Shown one piece after another: positions 2,590 to 36,030 of a DNA stretch of 64,000 nucleotides (positions are counted from its first letter, which is position 1; every line of letters begins with the position of its first letter). A program made the position numbers and the translations under genes. Origin of the DNA: Escherichia phage ECML-10; sequence record OL631479.1; one strand, given 5' to 3'. The notes under the pieces are model-generated. The model did not search any database, had not been told where the DNA came from, and saw only the letters and a list, made by a program, of their open reading frames with translations.

Positions 2590-2688
2590 TGTGCCTCCAG
2601 GTTAAACAATCATGATAGTTATTTTACCAGATTTTGAGTTAATACGCAATACAAACAAAAAGCCCCCGCCGAAGCGAGGGCAAAACAG

Positions 2689-5600
2689 TTACTTCAGTTT
2701 CTCTTGCAACCCAGTAACAACCTCTGTCAATTTTTTAACCTGCTCCTCAAGGGCGGTTATTTTATCGTCCTGTTCCCTGCAAACCTGGACAAGCAAGCCT
2801 GTTACGGCTGCGTAATCCACGCTGTAGAATCTTTCCTCTGTTATCAAAGGAGTTCCATCTTGATCAGGGTTTGGGATTTCCTTTCTTTGCACGAAAGAGC
2901 TAACTGCTTCCGGCAGCGCTTCAAGCACTTCTTGTGCTATAACACCTGCATAAGGCATACCGTTCTCTTTAAGAGTGTAAGTATAACCCTTCATCTTCCG
3001 GATAGCTTCTAACGCATCAGGAATAACAGATATGTTGTCTTTCAGGTCTCTGTCAGAGCTCTGATTGACAGATGTGCAATTCACAGCACCGTTTACAGAA
3101 AGATATCTTGATTTATCCGGCAAGGTACCGCAATGCCATACCCAATTTGCTTGAGACTCGTCAAGAACCTTAAACTCTAACACGTTTGGACGATCCCCTG
3201 TGCTGCCGTTACCCCAATAGTGCATATGGGCGGCATTAGCAGGCATGTTGCCACCGTTATTAGTAACATGGCTTCCAGAAATATATACCTTTAACTCTGA
3301 GGTCGGTATTTCCCCTTCGGGAGTTGTTCCTCCATATCTGAAGCTAACACCATTGCCACCTGTTTGGGTCCACGGGCCCCAAGTGAAGGTTTGTCTCACC
3401 ATATTACCATAACGTATAAATCTATCGCCGTGATAGGTAATATACTCTTGAACACACCCATTACCGTTATTGGCGTTATTCTGCAACACAATAAGTGTTC
3501 CAGCTTCATTTACCGGATAATGACGATCATATGTTGCATCATTATTTGCCGATTGATGGTAAATGCCTTCCCACAACCCATTATAGGTGTCAAGGTCTGA
3601 GGTACCGAGACCCTGACCCCTGTGCTGCATAGCCTTATTCCAGGGGTGGTGATTACCGCCTTCTATAGACCTGGTGTATAAGTTACTTTGTCTGCCAGCA
3701 ATCTGGAAAGCGTAGTTTCCCGAGAATCCTACAGATAAACCTCCTACAACCATGGTGTCTTGTGGACCGTTAACATTACCAGCCATTATTTTTGACGGGT
3801 TATTAGGCCCGAACTGGTTGTTCCAGTCTCCACCAGTATGACATACAAAACCACCTGGGGCTGAAAAAGTACCATCCTTATTGAAGTTGTAGAATCTATG
3901 AGCTGTGCCCACAACATCTCGAACAATAACTTGACCAGCCTCTGGAGTAGACCTGAACTCTGCTTGACCTTTAAGGCCAGCACCATTACCGCATTTAGAG
4001 GTAAACGTGCCGTTAGTTAGATCCTCTGTTCCATCTGATGCACACTGGAATCCTGCGTTAGAGAATAGCGCCTTTCTAGGACCACTGTAGCACAAATAGT
4101 CAAAACCGTCAGCCCATAGCTCTACTTTAGGCATGTTCATTTTGCTCATTATCGCATAGCGTTCAGCAGTGCCTATATAGTGCCACTGTGTGCCGCCGCC
4201 AGTGTAGAACCCAGAGGTACCTTTGAAGTCAACAATAGGTCTGGTGTTGGTATTGTTATCTCCGAGAACAGCCAGATTTAAATCTGCTGACTGGAGAGGT
4301 GCAACGAACTTAACACCGTCCTGATTGTCTGTTACAGAGCCAACCTGGTAATCTTGCTCCCTGGTAAACACCTCGACAACATTTCTACTTGCGTATATGC
4401 TGACAGGGAAAGCACGCGCCTCTGCATAGAAAGCAACATATTCTTGTTTACCCCTTGTTGGAGCAACCATCCCAAGAAGTGCTTTTTCATTCTGGTAGAA
4501 ATTTACTACCCCGTAGAAAGAGTCTCCTCTGTCTGTCCAACCACCAGTTCTATAGTGACACTGTAAGGTAGCACAGTTCATAGGGTCATTTCCAGATGAC
4601 GATCTGGTAACTATGGTAATATCAGTACCAGTTGCTGGAGCATAGTACGGATCTGTTCTAACGATGATCGGGTAGTATTTCCCATCTTCCATCCCTGCGG
4701 TTCTTGGCAGTGTTAAGAAGTCTTTCACACCTGCTGCTATAGGAACTTTGAACAGATTCTGAGCATCTGCTAGAGTTGTAGCCCCGGTGCCACCTGCGGC
4801 TTGAGGTAGAGGTTCCCACTTGGCCTTCCGGTTGTTATAAACACCCCATTCCAGAGTGCCGTTACCGGATTCGTCCATCCAGCCATCCCAGATAACCATC
4901 TTGGCGGCTTTCTTAGATCCCCAGAAGCCTCTTTCTGCTCCTGAACTACGTATCCACTCTCCAAGTCCCCAGTTTGTCAGCTGACCAGTAAGATCCCCAA
5001 CCTGCATGTATTTAGGGCAGTCTAATACACCGTCTTCGCGGAAACCCAAATATCTATGAGTTTCAGATCCTTTTGCACCTTTGTGGAGGTGGATTGTCAA
5101 CCAAGCCTTATTGTCGTTTCTTACCTCAGAGTAGATCCTATATCCATGCTCAAGGACACCGTCAGCGCTGTATTTGTCCCCGTTAACAATACCGGATGCT
5201 GACTTAACATCAGCAGAACTTTGAGACAGGTAAAGGTGCCCGAAGGTAGGAGAATTTCTAGACCCGAGACCGATGTGCGATCTAAAGGTATCATCGTTAC
5301 GAGGTCTAACCATCGGCTGCCATGCAGTCCACTGATTTGTGTTGGCCTGATAGGTTCTCAAATACCAAACATCTACGTTAGAGAATGGGTAGTATTCCTG
5401 ACGACAACCTGTACCGCCGTTAGCATTGTTCTGCCAAACAATCAAGTGACCAGCACCAGAACCTGCAGGGTAACCATTTGCCTCAGTTGCATAAGCAGTC
5501 ATCGGCTGGTAGTATACACCATCCTGATTACCAGTCAAGTTATTGATATTGAAATTTGGCTCAAGGGCTGCACGTTGCTTATAGAAAGCACCGATATTGA

Positions 5601-6501
5601 TACGGACTCCAGCGGCATCTCTAGCCCCTGTGCCGCCTTGCTCTATAGCAAGAGGTTGCCACGAAGCTGTTTGTTGGTTCCACATACCCCAACGGCCTGT
5701 TGCATCAAGCTGCAAGTACCCTGCCGTATTTAAATCATCTCCAGCACGGATAACTGTTCTTGTTGGGTTGTTTGCCTCTAGGCGTTTAAATTCATCACGA
5801 AGTGCTATTCTTTTCGTTGTTGCTACACCGTTGGTTACTGCAATGGTGTACATGGCTCCGGTGGTAGCGCCACGGAAAATACCATCAACAGTTGTAGTAT
5901 CACGGCGAGATACCACACCGTTCAGAAATTTTTCACCAGCTGCTACAGAAGGGTAGTTGGTGGTTCTTCCCTCTTCAATAACTGCAGGGCCAACAAAGTT
6001 ATCAAGGTGAATAACATCGCCTACGGTGTGCACTGTACCAAAATCTACACGCTGTGCAAGTGCTTTAGCATCGTTAGCTGTCTGAACAGTAACATCCATT
6101 ACATCCTGGACAGACTGCCCTTCGGCTGTCATGATCATAGATGCGCCAATGGTAGATTCCAGCTCCTCCCTTAAGGACGGGTCAGTATATACCATCCATG
6201 CAGCGTCAGTAATCCCACCATCAGCGTACGGTGAAGACAGTGCAGGAACAGTGTGCGGAAATTCACCTTTCCAACGCAGGTAGAGGTCTTCCTCTTCGAA
6301 GTAGGCAAAATCCATTGGGCCGTTTAACTTACCACCTTCCTTAAAGGAGATTACATGAGAAACAGTCCCATCCACATGGACAACATCGCCAATTTTTACA
6401 CGACGGGTCAGGTCTGGTTGCTGAACAACCAGGTAATCATCCTCTGTCACTGCGGTAGTGGCAGGAAGAGATTCAATTCTGACAACTTTAATATCAGCCA
6501 T
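2689..6501 (-). CDS. Long tail fiber protein with C-terminal intramolecular chaperone (peptidase S74-like) domain
   Basis: 1270 aa; internal repeats with W-x-P-L...GGTGA motif; C-terminus SDRDLKDNISVIPDALEAIRKMKGYTYTLKE resembles tail-fiber auto-cleaving chaperone domain; N-terminal ~100 aa shared with the 9136-9804 protein. Confidence 0.75.
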   Translation of the reverse strand: MADIKVVRIESLPATTAVTEDDYLVVQQPDLTRRVKIGDVVHVDGTVSHVISFKEGGKLNGPMDFAYFEEEDLYLRWKGEFPHTVPALSSPYADGGITDAAWMVYTDPSLREELESTIGASMIMTAEGQSVQDVMDVTVQTANDAKALAQRVDFGTVHTVGDVIHLDNFVGPAVIEEGRTTNYPSVAAGEKFLNGVVSRRDTTTVDGIFRGATTGAMYTIAVTNGVATTKRIALRDEFKRLEANNPTRTVIRAGDDLNTAGYLQLDATGRWGMWNQQTASWQPLAIEQGGTGARDAAGVRINIGAFYKQRAALEPNFNINNLTGNQDGVYYQPMTAYATEANGYPAGSGAGHLIVWQNNANGGTGCRQEYYPFSNVDVWYLRTYQANTNQWTAWQPMVRPRNDDTFRSHIGLGSRNSPTFGHLYLSQSSADVKSASGIVNGDKYSADGVLEHGYRIYSEVRNDNKAWLTIHLHKGAKGSETHRYLGFREDGVLDCPKYMQVGDLTGQLTNWGLGEWIRSSGAERGFWGSKKAAKMVIWDGWMDESGNGTLEWGVYNNRKAKWEPLPQAAGGTGATTLADAQNLFKVPIAAGVKDFLTLPRTAGMEDGKYYPIIVRTDPYYAPATGTDITIVTRSSSGNDPMNCATLQCHYRTGGWTDRGDSFYGVVNFYQNEKALLGMVAPTRGKQEYVAFYAEARAFPVSIYASRNVVEVFTREQDYQVGSVTDNQDGVKFVAPLQSADLNLAVLGDNNTNTRPIVDFKGTSGFYTGGGTQWHYIGTAERYAIMSKMNMPKVELWADGFDYLCYSGPRKALFSNAGFQCASDGTEDLTNGTFTSKCGNGAGLKGQAEFRSTPEAGQVIVRDVVGTAHRFYNFNKDGTFSAPGGFVCHTGGDWNNQFGPNNPSKIMAGNVNGPQDTMVVGGLSVGFSGNYAFQIAGRQSNLYTRSIEGGNHHPWNKAMQHRGQGLGTSDLDTYNGLWEGIYHQSANNDATYDRHYPVNEAGTLIVLQNNANNGNGCVQEYITYHGDRFIRYGNMVRQTFTWGPWTQTGGNGVSFRYGGTTPEGEIPTSELKVYISGSHVTNNGGNMPANAAHMHYWGNGSTGDRPNVLEFKVLDESQANWVWHCGTLPDKSRYLSVNGAVNCTSVNQSSDRDLKDNISVIPDALEAIRKMKGYTYTLKENGMPYAGVIAQEVLEALPEAVSSFVQRKEIPNPDQDGTPLITEERFYSVDYAAVTGLLVQVCREQDDKITALEEQVKKLTEVVTGLQEKLK

Positions 6502-6515
6502 TCTTTCTCCTGAAA

Positions 6516-6532
6516 GGGGGCAAACAGCCCCC
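6516..6532 (-). terminator. Hairpin (GGGGGCUGUUUGCCCCC on minus strand) between 865-aa gene and long fiber gene
   Basis: GC stem 5 nt after stop of 6537-9134 gene, followed by short U-run then RBS AGGAGAAAG of fiber gene. Confidence 0.4.
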
Positions 6533-6536
6533 TATG

Positions 6537-9134
6537 TTAAAGGTACAATCCACGGTATTGAGCATAAAGGCCCAGACCGCGAAGGATTTCGCCAGAGTGA
6601 TAGCCAACCGGATCAGAAACTGCCCAGCAGCCGTTTAAAATATTATCCCCATTAATGAAGTGGTGCTTTTGCAGTAGCTTCACACAGGCTTCTACAACAA
6701 TATCTATTTGAGGTATTGTCTCTGAATATCCGCACAGACCTAGCCAGCAGCAACCTGCAAGCCATTCACCTACCACCCACATCCTGTCTCCTCTGTCCTG
6801 ATAAGAATATCCCCCAGAGGTGTTAAAGTCTGTAGGCAGATTTCCTGAATGAGATGACTGGAATCTGTTGAGGAACCATGCCCATTTCTGGCAGAACAGG
6901 AATAGTCTTTCATCAACAGGTTCTTTATGTTTCTTGAGCTCATATATTGTGCGGCACGCAGCAACAAAAGATCTTGACTGGAGCTTAGAGTTATCTACCA
7001 TCTCCCACCAACCAGTCAACCCTTCATTACCTCTTTGCCATACATAACGTGAGGCAACTGGACCCTCTGTCTTAAATGTATTATTATACCAGACTTGAGC
7101 GTCATACAGAAAGCCTATTGTATTTGACAATCTATGGCGATCTATGTTTTCTGCACCCATGCAGTAGACTGCTGGGTATTGCATGCCAGGGTAGGGCCAA
7201 TTTGGCTTTTCCTCTAAGAGATAGTTTTCCTTATCTATCACCTTTCCGGCAGGGAACACACCCGGTGTGTGCCTGTATGCACCTTGCTTGTAGTTTCTGA
7301 CATAGCAATCTCCAACCTTAGCGGTTGATTCTGTCTTGCTTGCCATCCATACACTAAACCAGATTAGATAAGCATCCCTATCTGCAATATAGAATTGCGG
7401 CAGCGTGTTGACGCAATATAGATCAAACAAGCCATTACCTATCTGCCTGTCGCTTAGGCTGAAATCCACAGAGGTGAGCCCCTTAGGATTAGCAAAGAAA
7501 GGTTTAATCTCTTCTTCGGTGTGATGAGGTTGTGTCGGATCTAGTTTGAAATCTCCTAGAGTAAGAGTTTCTGTTATCCATTGTCCATTAGTGGCATATA
7601 GATCAGCATACCATAACCACCTGTCTTTGTCAAGAAATTTGACCCTTACCATCTCATCATCTGATCGATAAGTTACTGAGTTTAAAGAAATCTCTCTTCC
7701 AAAATTGAAAGTTACTTTACCTCTTGCTATATTACAACGGGTGAAGTTGTCAGAGTGGTTGTAAATGTCGGTATCATACTGCATACTGACACTAGCGCCA
7801 CCGCTCACGGCAATGTTTTCCTCTTTAGGTAAGAGATACGGATTACCGTCTTTACCAACCACCTCTACGAAATCGGTAACCTTGGCAACTATTTCTGTTA
7901 CCTCTGCCCCTCCAAAAGGAACCCCTATCCTGTACTGTTTTTTGTTATTGTTGCCATCATTAAGGATGAAATGTGGCTGGAACAGAACCCCTTCTCCTCC
8001 GAAATTCATAACAATTTCAGCATCTCTGCCTATTTTGTATGTAGTCCCTTTTTGGATTATTTCGCAAGGCTGGCGTGCGTTCATTCTAAAATTGATATAC
8101 CCGTCACTGTCCCTGCTCATGACAGGAACTGTTCCTGCAACAAGACAAGTACCATCTGTAAACGGTGCCTTAATCAACGTGGTCTTTCTAAACAGTTTGT
8201 CGTAGGCGTTTATATCACTGAAATTAAGCAACTTGTTGTAAGACTGTTCAAACGCGGTGTAATACTTTTCCTCACCTGTTAAGGTGTAGAGTTGATAACA
8301 AGCGTCACACCACATCTCTTCCCCGTCCAACTCTGGGGCTTGATTATCTGCAACCACGTTTATAGGATTTACAATTACAGGCGATCCTGCAGGTATCACC
8401 GATCCACCCTGCTCTTGGGGTAATCTTACACAATAGGTCACCTTGTGGCTGCCTGTAACACCCTTATCTTGTAATTGGATTGTGCCGAACTCTACAGACG
8501 TATGACCACTGTCGGCTATGCTACCGTTAGCCCAATAGCGGTTACCATCCCATGCTATATACCACTCAACCCACCAACTTAATCCAGATGTTGTCCAATC
8601 TGGGTTAGCATCTGTGCCGCCGTAAACATCAGCGTCTACAGTGTTTCTTCCTAACACACCGTTATATGCTTGGAAGGCCTTGTCCAGGTATTCTCCCCAT
8701 GTCGGAGATCCAGCTGGGATTTTTCCTCTACCGTTAGTAAAAGACACCACCACATCTTTAAACCCACCATGTGATGGGACCCCGTCTGTGGATAGAGGGT
8801 AGTGGGACAATCTTTGCATTTTACTTTCTACAGCATATGCGCCCAGAAGATGACTATTGTAAGCTTCCCAAGCATCTTTTGCCCTATCCAGATAGAAATC
8901 GCTTTTCGATGCCCTGTATGCTTCAATGTATCCCAGAATCAACACAGCTTGGGACTCATGCATTGCCCAATCATTATTTATCTTATTACCTGCCCACCCT
9001 GCAGCTATAAGACCATCAGGGTTTACTAGCTTATTTTGTGTAGGGGTGTTGGTAATACCTGTGTTGTTATCGAGGCACTTCCTGTGCCCCTCAATCATCT
9101 GAAATACGTTATCAATGTTGTGTTGAATACGCAT
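6537..9134 (-). CDS. Tail fiber/spike-like protein, possibly enzymatic (glycosidase-like)
   Basis: 865 aa, Trp/Gly/Tyr-rich, between two fiber genes; no recognised anchor domain. Confidence 0.45.
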   Translation of the reverse strand: MRIQHNIDNVFQMIEGHRKCLDNNTGITNTPTQNKLVNPDGLIAAGWAGNKINNDWAMHESQAVLILGYIEAYRASKSDFYLDRAKDAWEAYNSHLLGAYAVESKMQRLSHYPLSTDGVPSHGGFKDVVVSFTNGRGKIPAGSPTWGEYLDKAFQAYNGVLGRNTVDADVYGGTDANPDWTTSGLSWWVEWYIAWDGNRYWANGSIADSGHTSVEFGTIQLQDKGVTGSHKVTYCVRLPQEQGGSVIPAGSPVIVNPINVVADNQAPELDGEEMWCDACYQLYTLTGEEKYYTAFEQSYNKLLNFSDINAYDKLFRKTTLIKAPFTDGTCLVAGTVPVMSRDSDGYINFRMNARQPCEIIQKGTTYKIGRDAEIVMNFGGEGVLFQPHFILNDGNNNKKQYRIGVPFGGAEVTEIVAKVTDFVEVVGKDGNPYLLPKEENIAVSGGASVSMQYDTDIYNHSDNFTRCNIARGKVTFNFGREISLNSVTYRSDDEMVRVKFLDKDRWLWYADLYATNGQWITETLTLGDFKLDPTQPHHTEEEIKPFFANPKGLTSVDFSLSDRQIGNGLFDLYCVNTLPQFYIADRDAYLIWFSVWMASKTESTAKVGDCYVRNYKQGAYRHTPGVFPAGKVIDKENYLLEEKPNWPYPGMQYPAVYCMGAENIDRHRLSNTIGFLYDAQVWYNNTFKTEGPVASRYVWQRGNEGLTGWWEMVDNSKLQSRSFVAACRTIYELKKHKEPVDERLFLFCQKWAWFLNRFQSSHSGNLPTDFNTSGGYSYQDRGDRMWVVGEWLAGCCWLGLCGYSETIPQIDIVVEACVKLLQKHHFINGDNILNGCWAVSDPVGYHSGEILRGLGLYAQYRGLYL

Positions 9135-9135
9135 C

Positions 9136-9804
9136 TTAGATAGCTCCTGCGATAATCAGTGCCCCGTACCAAGTTAACCCGTTGTCGTAGGTTTCCAACT
9201 TGAAAATGTCTGTTGCACCAGCCGTGAATGTTAGGATAGGATCTCTTCCATAAGCCCATTTAACATTATCAGGCCAATAGACTTTGTTGCCGCCAGAGGT
9301 CTGCGTAATGCATACGGTTATAGTTCTCGCCACCCCTTCAAGACCTTCTGTTTGATTTTCAAAAGAGATTGTGGTATTTGAAGTTAGTCGAACTTTAAAG
9401 GTATCCGCAACTTCAAGATCCATATCAAGCTGACCACCGATAGATCCGTAATCAACTATTCTGCCAGAAGAAGTTGCAGCAAGCTCACCAAAAACAGACC
9501 AGGCATTTGCAGACACACCCCCAGCACCCTCTACAGTGGAGTCTGGGAGGATTATTTTAGGATAATCCCCGTTCCACGTGTAGTAGCGCTTAGTTTCGGG
9601 GTCGTAAGCAAAGTCCTTCTTGCTCTTAAGATAACCACCCTCTGTGAAATAGACTATCTTAGTAATGCTAAGATCGTTGACAACATCGTCAATCTTAGCC
9701 TTTCTTGTCCCATCAGTCTGGTTGACAACCAAGAAGTCATCACTCAGGACTGTTTCTGCATCTTCAAGATCTGGAATTGGTATTGTAGGATAAGCTACAG
9801 CCAT
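9136..9804 (-). CDS. Short tail fiber/spike protein sharing N-terminal anchor domain with long fiber
   Basis: 222 aa; N-terminus (DDFLVVNQTDGTRKAKIDDVV...YFTEGGYLKSKKDFAY) aligns with N-terminus of 2689-6501 product. Confidence 0.5.
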   Translation of the reverse strand: MAVAYPTIPIPDLEDAETVLSDDFLVVNQTDGTRKAKIDDVVNDLSITKIVYFTEGGYLKSKKDFAYDPETKRYYTWNGDYPKIILPDSTVEGAGGVSANAWSVFGELAATSSGRIVDYGSIGGQLDMDLEVADTFKVRLTSNTTISFENQTEGLEGVARTITVCITQTSGGNKVYWPDNVKWAYGRDPILTFTAGATDIFKLETYDNGLTWYGALIIAGAI

Positions 9805-33974: not shown

Positions 33975-34021
33975 ATCTCCTGATTCTCCTTGTGTGGCAA
34001 TTTTCTTTAAAATAGCAGGGA

Positions 34022-34576
34022 TTACTCCCCGCTGTCAATAGCAAGACTCATTGCAATACGGTATGCCTCTTCTAATGGTAAGAGTCTCCCCCACACATCC
34101 CAACCGACATCAAGCTGCCTGCCAAACAACTGTTGTGTGGTTCCGTGAGCATGACCGAACAGTTGGACTGATCCATGAGGCTTTCTGTTCCACTTTGCAA
34201 ACTGGTAATGGCTCATACAGATCAAATTCTTGTTGTGGCGAAGCTCGTAATAATCTACAACCTCGTGATAGAACTCTTTCATAATTCTGACAGTCGTCCT
34301 TGTGTCATGGTTGCCACGAACAAGAATAATATGTCCGTTCAACATATTTAGAATATCCGGGAGTAAGTTGTTGATATTCTTATCATTAGTGCACGCAATA
34401 TCTCCCAAGTGGAACACAGTGTCTGCAGGTGACACAACAGAGTTCCACTCGGCGATGATTCCTGCATTCATACTGTCAAGATTGTGATCATACTGAGATC
34501 TGTGTTTTTGACATGAATCAAACTCCATGACCCGCTGGTGGAGAAAGTGTGTGTCGCTTGTTACAAAGTATTTCAT
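34022..34576 (-). CDS. Calcineurin-like metallophosphoesterase
   Basis: Motifs GDIACTND, GNHD, GHAHG; start at ATG 34576 (RBS GAGGAA) just after kinase gene stop. Confidence 0.65.
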   Translation of the reverse strand: MKYFVTSDTHFLHQRVMEFDSCQKHRSQYDHNLDSMNAGIIAEWNSVVSPADTVFHLGDIACTNDKNINNLLPDILNMLNGHIILVRGNHDTRTTVRIMKEFYHEVVDYYELRHNKNLICMSHYQFAKWNRKPHGSVQLFGHAHGTTQQLFGRQLDVGWDVWGRLLPLEEAYRIAMSLAIDSGE

Positions 34577-34583
34577 ACATTCC

Positions 34584-34994
34584 TCATTTAAGTTTAATGC
34601 AGTTTTTAAGCTGGCGTTCCATACGATCCACAACCCTGTCTGGAACATCATGAATGCTTTTATTACCGTGGCGGTTTTCAACCACGATCACGGTATAACT
34701 ATACCCATGACTGATTGCCATGTCAATATATTCTTGCACATGTTTTTCTTTTGTAAACGTATTACTTACCACGATACGGTCGTATCCCATACGCATCATA
34801 TCTTCTACGTTATCTTTGCACCATTTTGCTGCAAGTGTTACTTTACTTGCATCCCAGTTGTAATTTCCGTCATCGTCGTACCAGAACATGTCGTTCTCAA
34901 AATGTGGATACAGACCTTCTAAAGATAGAGCATTTGCCAGTGTTGATTTGCCAGACCCTGGTATACCACGCACGATATATAGCATTTTAGACAT
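34584..34994 (-). CDS. P-loop polynucleotide kinase-like protein
   Basis: Walker A GIPGSGKST near N-terminus like T4 Pnk kinase domain; start ATG 34994 with RBS GGGGGA. Confidence 0.5.
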   Translation of the reverse strand: MSKMLYIVRGIPGSGKSTLANALSLEGLYPHFENDMFWYDDDGNYNWDASKVTLAAKWCKDNVEDMMRMGYDRIVVSNTFTKEKHVQEYIDMAISHGYSYTVIVVENRHGNKSIHDVPDRVVDRMERQLKNCIKLK

Positions 34995-35022
34995 AGCAAT
35001 CCCCCGTTTTAATTTTAATGAT

Positions 35023-35051
35023 AGTATACCTAACTGTTTTGTTAATTTCAA
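35023..35051 (-). promoter_or_regulatory. Sigma70-like promoter (TTGAAA-N17-TATACT) for kinase/phosphoesterase genes
   Basis: Minus-strand hexamers in divergent intergenic region. Confidence 0.4.
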
Positions 35052-35054
35052 GTG

Positions 35055-35084
35055 TTGACACTAGGTTGTTTGTGTGGCAGGATA
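35055..35084 (+). promoter_or_regulatory. Candidate promoter for RNA ligase operon (TTGACA, weak -10)
   Basis: TTGACA at 35055-35060; -10 region diverged; shares leading GTTGACA with other plus-strand promoters. Confidence 0.3.
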
Positions 35085-35094
35085 GACTGACAAA

Positions 35095-36030
35095 ATGACA
35101 AATGAGGAACGTATGATGAAGTATTTTAATGCAGACGATCTAGTTGACAAAGGTCTTGTAACCAGTCGATATTATCCAGATCTTGGATTAAAGATCTATA
35201 AATATGCCAGAAAAGTATTCTACAACAATCTGTGGCATTTGTCCCCTCGTTTGCTGGAGTGCCGAGGCATTGTTGTCGGTAATGAAGGAAATGTTGTGGC
35301 ATGGCCCTTCACAAAAGTGTTTAACTTGGGAGAAAATCACACCAACCTGCCTGACAATAAGCTTGTGACGGCGGTAGAGAAAAAGAACGGATTCCTCGGC
35401 GTGGTGTCATCTCATAAAGGTGAACTATTGTTCTCAACAACCGGATCTCTTGATTCCCCATATTGTAACCTCGCAAAGGAAACCATCCGGGAGCAATGTG
35501 GTAATTTAGATCTTATCAAGAAGGTTATGGGCAATGAAAACATGACATTCATGTTTGAAATTTGTCACCCTTCAGATCCGCATATTGTTCAGGAAGATCA
35601 TGGCGCATATTTGATAGGTTGCAGATATAATGATTCTGGAATAATGCTGCCAGAAGCAGCTTTAGATGGGATTGCCAAATACCTTGGCGCAAAACGTCCT
35701 CACACTGTGCGTGAAATTCCGTTCAGCTATGCAAAAGAATTGGCTGCAGAAACAAGAGGTGAAGGGTATATGATTCGTAAGCCTTACTACCCTTATGATC
35801 TGCAGCTGAAGATCAAGTCTCCATACTATCTGGCACGGAAGGCCGTAATGAGGGGTAAAGCTTGGAAGATTTGGGATGATGATATCTTTAAACGTGTTGA
35901 CGAAGAGTTTTACGGCATGGTAAACTTCATTCGTAGCAATTACACAGAAGATGTGTGGAACTGCCTACTGGAGCAGGAACGCAGGGAGATACTCGACCAC
36001 TATTTCCACAACGAGGACTATATGCAATGA
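35095..36030 (+). CDS. rnlA: RNA ligase 1 (T4 RnlA-like)
   Basis: LLECRGIVV, FTKVFNLGEN, VEKKNGFLGVV (motif I), GEGYMIRK (motif IV), LKIKS (motif V); matches T4 Rnl1 as recalled. Alternative start ATG 35113. Confidence 0.7.
   Translation: MTNEERMMKYFNADDLVDKGLVTSRYYPDLGLKIYKYARKVFYNNLWHLSPRLLECRGIVVGNEGNVVAWPFTKVFNLGENHTNLPDNKLVTAVEKKNGFLGVVSSHKGELLFSTTGSLDSPYCNLAKETIREQCGNLDLIKKVMGNENMTFMFEICHPSDPHIVQEDHGAYLIGCRYNDSGIMLPEAALDGIAKYLGAKRPHTVREIPFSYAKELAAETRGEGYMIRKPYYPYDLQLKIKSPYYLARKAVMRGKAWKIWDDDIFKRVDEEFYGMVNFIRSNYTEDVWNCLLEQERREILDHYFHNEDYMQ

Follow-up and report, generated by a model that had tools for sequence, protein, structure and literature searches.

Three genes in the tail cluster of phage ECML-10

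We analysed a stretch of 64,000 nucleotides (nt) from Escherichia phage ECML-10 (sequence record OL631479.1), referred to here in its full length as the window, in which three co-oriented minus-strand open reading frames (ORFs) were confirmed at the coordinates given in Table 1. They encode proteins of 222, 865 and 1270 amino acids (aa), and the 222-aa and 1270-aa proteins share an N-terminal head that the 865-aa protein between them lacks. The region is 99.7% identical to naam and DrSchubert (BASEL Bas50), two rV5-like myoviruses of ~137 kilobases in the genus Vequintavirus, and in rV5 nomenclature the three products are gp43 (222 aa), gp42 (865 aa) and gp41 (1270 aa; 1272 aa in rV5). Mass spectrometry has found gp41, gp42 and gp43 together in rV5 virions (PMC3606486).

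A shared N-terminal head on two of the three proteins

A preliminary description of this DNA, made from the sequence alone, had proposed that the 222-aa and 1270-aa proteins share an N-terminal module of about 100 residues, and this relationship is confirmed. BLASTP aligns residues 8–105 of the 222-aa protein with residues 7–105 of the 1270-aa protein (38/99 identities or 38%, 55% positives, one gap, E=3e-18), and all of the motif strings picked out earlier are visible in this alignment, apart from 'AAW', which reads 'NAW' in the 222-aa protein. When each N-terminus was searched by phmmer against all 450 six-frame ORFs of the window it found only its partner (E=4e-17 and 2e-18), and no third copy of the module is present among these ORFs or in the remaining tail-fibre cluster of the near-identical DrSchubert. 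The 865-aa protein has no significant match to either the 222-aa or the 1270-aa protein (best E=0.37 and 1.4); that it lacks the module had been stated correctly, and is probably the key observation of the preliminary description.

Both heads contain the Pfam domain PF18668, Tail_spike_N (TSP1/Gp66 N-terminal domain), which scores 41.0 bits over residues 51–105 of the 222-aa protein and 38.6 bits over residues 46–103 of the 1270-aa protein, against a gathering cut-off of 25 bits. Both also match the same region of the solved chains 9occ_G, 9d84, 4qnl and 5w6h (TSP4), with 4oj5 (TSP1) as a further match of the 222-aa protein. In phage CBA120, Tail_spike_N is known as D2, a head domain of TSP1, TSP3 and TSP4 (PMC8825819), and the stretch matched here, TSP1 residues ~105–159, presumably corresponds to this second head domain. 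The D1-D2 head of CBA120 TSP1 binds XD3 of TSP4, as determined by ultracentrifugation (PMC8825819); in the best-studied homologues the head docks on another tailspike, and not on the baseplate. For rV5 gp43, Kropinski et al. (2013) likened the N-terminus to the particle-binding domain of the P22 tailspike (HHpred 2VNL, probability 96%; PMC3606486). The suggestion that the two heads have a common fold comes only from homology at the level of sequence and profiles. A recent gene conversion between them is not supported: the identity between the paralogues (38–47%) does not exceed their identity to cross-genus orthologues, which speaks for an old duplication.

The head has two separable parts

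The alignments indicate that the shared head of ~105 aa is composed of two separable parts, an N-terminal peptide of ~44 aa (the N-peptide) and the Tail_spike_N cassette. When the 222-aa protein is aligned with its 4MG, Schickermooser and phi92 homologues, the cassette (residues ~45–108) appears as a clean insertion or deletion between the N-peptide and the C-terminal domain; phi92 gp140 and Schickermooser gp258 are without the cassette, yet the N-peptide is conserved in both. A profile of the N-peptide matches phi92 gp140 (E=1e-24) and also the phi92 endosialidase gp143 (E=4e-9), which likewise has no cassette. By contrast, phi92 gp151 (L004 19320–21281) starts directly with the cassette (E=3e-21), lacks the N-peptide, and has collagen-like and fibritin-C-like segments further on. 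In one virion the cassette thus has two or more N-terminal contexts.

The cassette is found in 1,260 phage records, and the N-peptide has just 38 matches among 1.84 billion cluster representatives. In all strong full-length matches, which are proteins of 159–1599 aa, the N-peptide occupies residues 1–48, and among the distal domains behind it are S74 fibres, a Collar domain and an alginate lyase. The N-peptide is absent from solved structures (the best match, E=1.7, is spurious), and the ~44 residues in front of the cassette, where a D1 head domain of the CBA120 type would stand, match no solved chain and represent a separate, narrowly distributed family.

The N-peptide is matched within genomes and carries different distal parts

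The pairing of a small protein and a larger one through a common N-terminus recurs elsewhere. In Seunavirus 4MG, the small protein 4MG_049 and the 712-aa colanidase-type protein 4MG_047 share their first ~103 residues (47%, E=1e-26), the pairing being as in the window and the distal part a different one, a colanidase-type body. The N-peptide pairs gp140 with the endosialidase gp143 in phi92, and two distant contigs provide further cases, a small protein with a 1493-aa fibre in L008 (49% over 53 aa, E=2e-14) and a 244-aa with a 502-aa protein in L009 (41% over 44 aa, E=4e-10). N-peptide comparisons between these last two genomes and the window are not significant. Judged from sequence, the N-peptide is thus matched within each virion and divergent between genomes, as a common docking partner predicts. 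The preliminary description had proposed a common baseplate-docking domain with alternative receptor-binding parts, to be checked by comparing related phages for domain shuffling. That comparison yields the same head on a colanidase-type body in Seunavirus and the N-peptide on the phi92 endosialidase, and a head with exchangeable distal parts is well founded in this respect, with the baseplate as a putative docking site; the idea that the 222-aa protein is one of the receptor-binding fibres fares less well, as described below.

In Kolesnikvirus/FelixO1-like phages (L009 2588–6001 and L013 1839–5243), consecutive genes for the 502-aa protein and the 244-aa putative adaptor encode a related N-terminal peptide (E=4e-10). 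Upstream, a 357-aa protein with T4 Gp10_C has a similar-looking start motif, but it does not match the 244-aa protein significantly (E=0.036). The rule of a shared docking peptide may extend to more than two appendages in these phages.

In the podovirus ISAO8, the position of the head is taken by the T7 tail-attachment domain PF03906 (E=1e-8). This replacement of the N-peptide by a known tail-attachment domain, its constant position at the extreme N-terminus of structurally unrelated distal parts, its co-variation within genomes together with divergence between them, and the binding of the homologous TSP1 head to TSP4 all argue against the shared N-terminus being a mere trimerisation or folding nucleus that was left by duplication and has no docking function. 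We regard such a role as highly improbable, although it would accord with the trimeric state of tailspike head domains and with the Zn-dependent trimerisation reported for the TSP1 head (PMC8825819).

The gene for the 222-aa protein is paired with that for a glycosidase-like protein

Within the genus, the 222-aa and 865-aa proteins are each ~99% invariant. In predicted models, the C-terminal domain of the 222-aa protein is a beta-sandwich superposable on XD1 representatives (T4 gp9-like), and the 865-aa protein forms an (alpha/alpha)6 toroid with a glycoside-hydrolase fold (GH105/GH88/GH76/GH8-like), which would make it glycosidase-like by fold. The 865-aa protein has no Pfam match and no attachment domain. 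The possibility that it serves as an XD-type platform for both heads was rejected, as it is an (alpha/alpha)6 barrel with beta inserts and no XD-like part was seen in it. The label 'sialidase domain protein' given to the 222-aa protein in BASEL (DrSchubert bas50_0025) is also unsupported, the sole sialidase matches found being Foldseek ones with E>1 to a Micromonospora sialidase, and the confident part of the model is XD1/T4-gp9-like.

The two genes travel together. In all 12 genomes inspected, a gene whose product ends in a gp140-like C-terminal domain lies right up against, or overlaps, the start of the gene for a full-length 865-aa homologue; these genomes represent Vequintavirinae, Stephanstirmvirinae, Rosemountvirus, Ounavirinae, Autographiviridae, Seoulvirus, a Vibrio phage, two metagenome contigs and a Burkholderia prophage. 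The pair is seen in the window (where the junction reads TAA-G-ATG), in 4MG, Schickermooser and phi92, and in the two metagenome contigs and the Burkholderia prophage, where the C-terminal domain is matched with E=1e-30, 1.5e-29 and 2e-16. It is also present in Rosemountvirus BP63, Vibrio phage D504, Kolesnikvirus SeKF_13 and the autographivirid ISAO8, with overlaps of 1–8 nt, and in the jumbo Seoulvirus SPFM11, with the genes 3 nt apart; the large proteins of these five phages align with the whole of the 865-aa profile (E from 0 to 1e-196). Among 50,697 phage records, the C-terminal domain alone is found in 524 and the glycosidase in 524, with near-identical taxon counts. The N-terminus of the small protein differs by lineage. 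The podovirus Ahp1, related to ISAO8, has a one-piece 779-aa fibre on the same N-domain (PMC5014404), and ISAO8 has the two-piece set in its place. We found no earlier description of the proposed adaptor-glycosidase pair in the searchable literature.

These observations bear on whether the two head-bearing proteins are simply independent receptor-binding fibres plugged into the baseplate, with a lectin-like tip at the C-terminus of the 222-aa protein and the 865-aa protein attached by other means. The 222-aa protein is labelled 'tail fiber' in databases (PHROG 7760), CpaA and StcE, both matched in the structure search, employ an XD1-type fold to bind glycans, and cryo-electron microscopy (cryo-EM) of phi92 puts fibre I directly on the wedge protein gp145 (PMC13450770). 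However, the 222-aa protein is invariant, whereas true receptor-binding regions vary, and in unrelated phages its C-terminal domain keeps strictly to the glycosidase gene, judging by their adjacency and by a record count of 524 for each. In ISAO8, moreover, there is no tail-fibre slot besides the one that the small protein fills, and nothing else is seen by which the glycosidase could be attached. We therefore consider independent fibres unlikely, and the part of the preliminary description that made the 222-aa protein a receptor-binding fibre does not agree with its invariance, its XD1 fold and its coupling to the glycosidase.

The 1270-aa fibre is a mosaic with a variable tip

The 1270-aa fibre combines parts with different relatives. 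In tblastn searches, residues 1–134 match only colanidase-type proteins, and residues ~169–1265 are 33–38% identical to the lateral fibres of Kenya-K33, ESCO30, EASG3, CAjan and others (T5-like, Nonagvirus, Drexlerviridae), siphovirus-type fibres that show no match to residues 1–167. Among Vequintavirus alleles the head and shaft are 98–100% identical, identity falls to 24–30% over residues ~950–1130, and in phage naswa the tip has been replaced outright. Close to the C-terminus, Peptidase_S74 (PF13884) scores 51.2 bits against a cut-off of 22 over residues 1149–1200, and this chaperone is predicted to cleave itself off after the trimer has folded. Because it alone is variable, the 1270-aa fibre is a plausible host-range determinant. 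The modular host-range switching suggested by the preliminary description can be retained as an evolutionary exchange of cassettes, but not as an either/or use of the appendages: because all three proteins coexist in rV5 virions, the arrangement is multivalent.

One group of alleles (naswa, FFH2, ime and Alma) matches the fibre only up to residue ~1047–1061. In naswa (L006 7501–12272), the sole allele locus read, a 1479-aa protein is followed by a separate 110-aa ORF, which looks like a change from an intramolecular to a separately encoded chaperone.

A proposed split tailspike beside a one-piece fibre

Our model takes as its starting points the homology of the heads, their two-part anatomy, the mosaic fibre, the folds and the conservation of the gene pair documented above. 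We think it reasonably probable that a shared two-part head mounts a one-piece fibre and an adaptor-enzyme pair at the same kind of site on the baseplate periphery. Residues 1–44 would constitute a lineage-specific docking peptide and residues ~45–108 a generic trimeric spacer cassette (Tail_spike_N, CBA120 D2-type), and through this head the two trimeric appendages of one virion would be placed at docking sites of one kind. The 1270-aa protein would be the one-piece fibre, with its head, T5-type shaft, hypervariable receptor-binding tip and self-cleaving S74 chaperone. The 222-aa protein would be an adaptor and not a fibre, its XD1/T4-gp9-like C-terminal beta-sandwich holding the 865-aa glycosidase-like protein, and the 222-aa and 865-aa genes would together encode a split tailspike whose head and enzyme are separate polypeptides, the 865-aa protein receiving its head in trans. 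The adaptor reading would explain why the 865-aa protein in the middle is without the module. From these relationships we infer the binding of the C-terminal domain of the small protein to the glycosidase, the physical docking of the heads and the identity of the docking site.

Several points weigh against this model. The models themselves are weak in places, with a mean predicted local distance difference test score (pLDDT) of 64 for the 865-aa protein, and a pLDDT below 50 over residues 1–113 in the AlphaFold2 monomer model of the 222-aa protein, from which no fold of the head can be read. Six homologues were examined for a Rosetta-stone fusion of small protein and glycosidase; none had one, and all six begin at the same N-terminal helix. 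A Pfam scan of 12 cluster proteins (nine from the window and DrSchubert bas50_0031, 0032 and 0034; bas50_0033 and bas50_0035–0038 were left out) yielded no T4-gp10-type XD2/XD3 docking domain, XD domains being hard to detect by sequence. In BP63 the gene pair adjoins neck genes, so that in some phages attachment may be elsewhere than at the baseplate. Finally, (alpha/alpha)6 glycosidases are usually monomeric, which raises a question of stoichiometry with a presumably trimeric adaptor.

Structural data from phi92 bear on how two appendages with related heads could be arranged. In the cryo-EM reconstruction, fibre I sits on top of the C-terminal domain of the wedge protein gp145 and fibre II arises at the base of fibre I, the maps showing three ordered six-fold sets of fibres; fibre II and the 'arm' of fibre I were left unassigned, and gp141 was never considered (PMC13450770). 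If both heads instead competed for one docking site, virions would carry a mixture of long fibres and adaptor-glycosidase units. The paralogues in each genome do share both the N-peptide and the state of the cassette (both with it in the window and 4MG, both without it in phi92), and no second, distinct docking platform was found in the 12 cluster proteins scanned. The three ordered sets in phi92, with fibre II at the base of fibre I, nonetheless suggest neighbouring fixed sites (PMC13450770), and the heads are only 38% identical, which leaves room for discrimination between sites. We judge competition for a single site to be quite improbable.

A broader form of the split-tailspike model, to which we give about an even chance, holds that the 222-aa family is a universal adaptor, its C-terminal domain capturing an (alpha/alpha)6 glycosidase and its N-terminus being exchanged to suit each virion, and that the pair is an undescribed, widely mobile module for host recognition, present in ~1% of sequenced phages and accounting for fibre II of phi92. 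For rV5-/phi92-like myoviruses the exchanged N-terminus would be the N-peptide, with or without Tail_spike_N; for podoviruses it would be the T7 gp17 N-domain, for Rosemountvirus a coiled coil and for the Burkholderia prophage SPRY. In phi92, gp140+gp141 and gp143 would stand on adjacent equivalent sites, and fibre II would lie beside gp143 because both use the same docking peptide. As a candidate for fibre II, we see gp140+gp141 as having roughly as much for it as against it.

That two receptor-binding proteins share an N-terminal module is in itself ordinary phage biology, and the domain is already in Pfam; what is added here is that the head has a two-part anatomy, that the docking peptide co-varies within virions and that the proposed adaptor-glycosidase pair is conserved. 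Phages of the rV5-/phi92-like group are widely used as broad-host-range therapeutic candidates. The assignment of genes to their three lateral fibre sets has been described as 'far from clear' (BASEL 2021, PMC8594841), and fibre II of phi92 'remains a significant challenge' in the 2026 cryo-EM study (PMC13450770). A shared docking peptide would serve as a wiring rule, predicting that gp43+gp42 and gp41 (in phi92, gp140+gp141 and gp143) occupy equivalent neighbouring sites, and the variable fibre tip at residues ~950–1150 of the 1270-aa protein would be the region to engineer. If the model is correct, the adaptor-glycosidase pair is a portable two-gene module of use in receptor-binding-protein engineering, by which an enzyme with no attachment domain could be mounted on the virions of myo-, podo- and jumbo-phages through exchange of an N-terminal piece of ~50–150 aa.

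Features and surroundings of the locus

The coordinates of the features are collected in Table 1. The three genes are the end of one transcription unit, with a strong terminator-like hairpin after the 1270-aa gene. Upstream, the order of genes is tape measure, tube initiator, plug, hub, spike and sheath initiator, which parallels phi92 gp134–gp139.

Table 1. Features of the three-gene locus, in positions of the window
Feature	Coordinates	Strand	Basis and remarks
222-aa protein (rV5 gp43/phi92 gp140 family)	9136..9804	-	N-peptide, Tail_spike_N cassette and XD1-like C-terminal domain; PHROG 7760, E=1e-119
Putative N-terminal docking peptide, residues 1-44 of 222-aa protein	9673..9804	-	Peptide profile matches; alignment
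Tail_spike_N (PF18668) cassette, residues ~45-108 of 222-aa protein	9481..9672	-	Pfam 41 bits against cut-off of 25; solved tailspike chains
gp140-like C-terminal beta-sandwich, residues ~109-222 of 222-aa protein	9139..9480	-	XD1/T4 gp9-like fold; proposed glycosidase-binding domain
865-aa protein (rV5 gp42/phi92 gp141 family)	6537..9134	-	(alpha/alpha)6-barrel, glycoside-hydrolase-like, with inserted beta domains; no attachment module
GC-rich hairpin GGGGGC-TGTTT-GCCCCC in the 35-nt gap between the 865-aa and 1270-aa genes	6516..6532	-	Read from sequence; followed by GGAG and ATG
1270-aa lateral tail fibre (rV5 gp41)	2689..6501	-	Shared head, T5-type shaft, hypervariable tip, S74 chaperone
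Putative N-terminal docking peptide, residues 1-44 of 1270-aa fibre	6370..6501	-	BLASTP and peptide profile
Tail_spike_N (PF18668) cassette, residues ~45-105 of 1270-aa fibre	6187..6369	-	Pfam 38.6 bits; chains 9occ_G, 9lna, 9d84, 4qnl, 5w6h
Neck and linker, residues ~106-168 of 1270-aa fibre	5998..6186	-	tblastn boundaries; 9occ_G alignment reaches residue 138
Fibre shaft, residues ~169-950 of 1270-aa protein	3652..5997	-	Homology to T5-like, Nonagvirus/Seuratvirus and Drexlerviridae lateral fibres
Hypervariable distal tip, residues ~951-1148 of 1270-aa fibre	3058..3651	-	24-30% identity to other Vequintavirus alleles; probable receptor-binding region
Peptidase_S74 intramolecular chaperone and C-terminal coiled coil, residues 1149-1270	2692..3057	-	PF13884 51.2 bits; 6f45 match
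Intrinsic terminator-like hairpin after the 1270-aa gene	2662..2681	-	8-base-pair stem with 7 GC pairs, T-run, TTTTTGTTTG tail

The perfect 6-base-pair GC hairpin at 6516–6532 precedes the variable fibre gene and was not called as a terminator by the terminator scan; it could be an RNA-stability element, an attenuation element or a recombination boundary of the fibre cassette. Further along the window, at ~34000–36000, the GC skew flips from about -0.1 to +0.14, consistent with a divergent transcription boundary at which minus-strand structural genes give way to plus-strand genes.

Just downstream of the 1270-aa fibre gene, at 1021–2589 on the minus strand and running past position 1 of the window (L001 7423–12590), there is an apparent siphovirus tail-tip module in this myovirus. 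Its members are a 196-aa protein that PHROG labels 'distal tail protein', a 188-aa 'tail protein' and a 145-aa DUF6950 protein, with a 1199-aa lambda-J-like protein (Pfam Phage_Tail_Tip, Ig_J and Ig_J_second) beyond the window. The module is not present at the equivalent position in 4MG, Schickermooser or phi92. Eighteen records titled 'Campylobacter phage' (host C. jejuni; MG0656xx) match this rV5-like region, those listed being ~97–98% identical. They have similar genome sizes and no annotation, and are probably coliphages that were mislabelled or co-isolated in that study.

Comparison with known systems

In the Kuttervirus CBA120, the D1-D2 heads of TSP1 and TSP3 dock on the T4-gp10-like XD domains of TSP4 and TSP2 (Chao et al. 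2022, PMC8825819). The system in the window is similar in having Tail_spike_N near the N-terminus, several receptor-binding proteins of one virion with related heads, and an XD1-fold module. Unlike CBA120, it has a short unrelated peptide of ~44 aa in place of D1 and no XD2/XD3 platform among the 12 proteins scanned, its XD1-like domain lies at the C-terminus of a stand-alone 222-aa protein, and one appendage would be split into an adaptor and an (alpha/alpha)6 enzyme that is not a beta-helix. Head docking has been demonstrated in CBA120, whereas here it is a deduction. Compared with T4 gp9, domain 1 of T4 gp10 and XD1 of CBA120 TSP4, the C-terminal domain of the 222-aa protein has only 5–12% sequence identity, and unlike these it is a C-terminal module whose proposed role is enzyme binding and not spacing.

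A short N-terminal peptide and attachment through another protein are also features of the adaptor-plus-tailspike fibres of K1E, K1-5 and SP6 and of phi92 fibre I, in which the gp143 endosialidase is carried on an arm (PMC13450770), and phi92 gp143 has an N-peptide of the same family as the window proteins. Unlike in phi92 fibre I, the peptide in the window is followed by a Tail_spike_N cassette, and the distal part is a T5-type fibre and not an endosialidase. Phage P22 differs from the window in having one type of tailspike, docked on the gp4/gp10 tail hub of a podovirus. Its tailspike is nevertheless similar in the succession of an N-terminal trimeric attachment domain, a neck and a variable body, a likeness that has been published for rV5 gp43. 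Residues ~169–1265 of the 1270-aa protein, S74 included, resemble the L-shaped fibres of T5 (pb1) and DT57C (LtfA-LtfB), with 33–38% identity; those siphovirus fibres are without the head, whereas here a fibre body of this type is grafted onto a myovirus-specific docking head.

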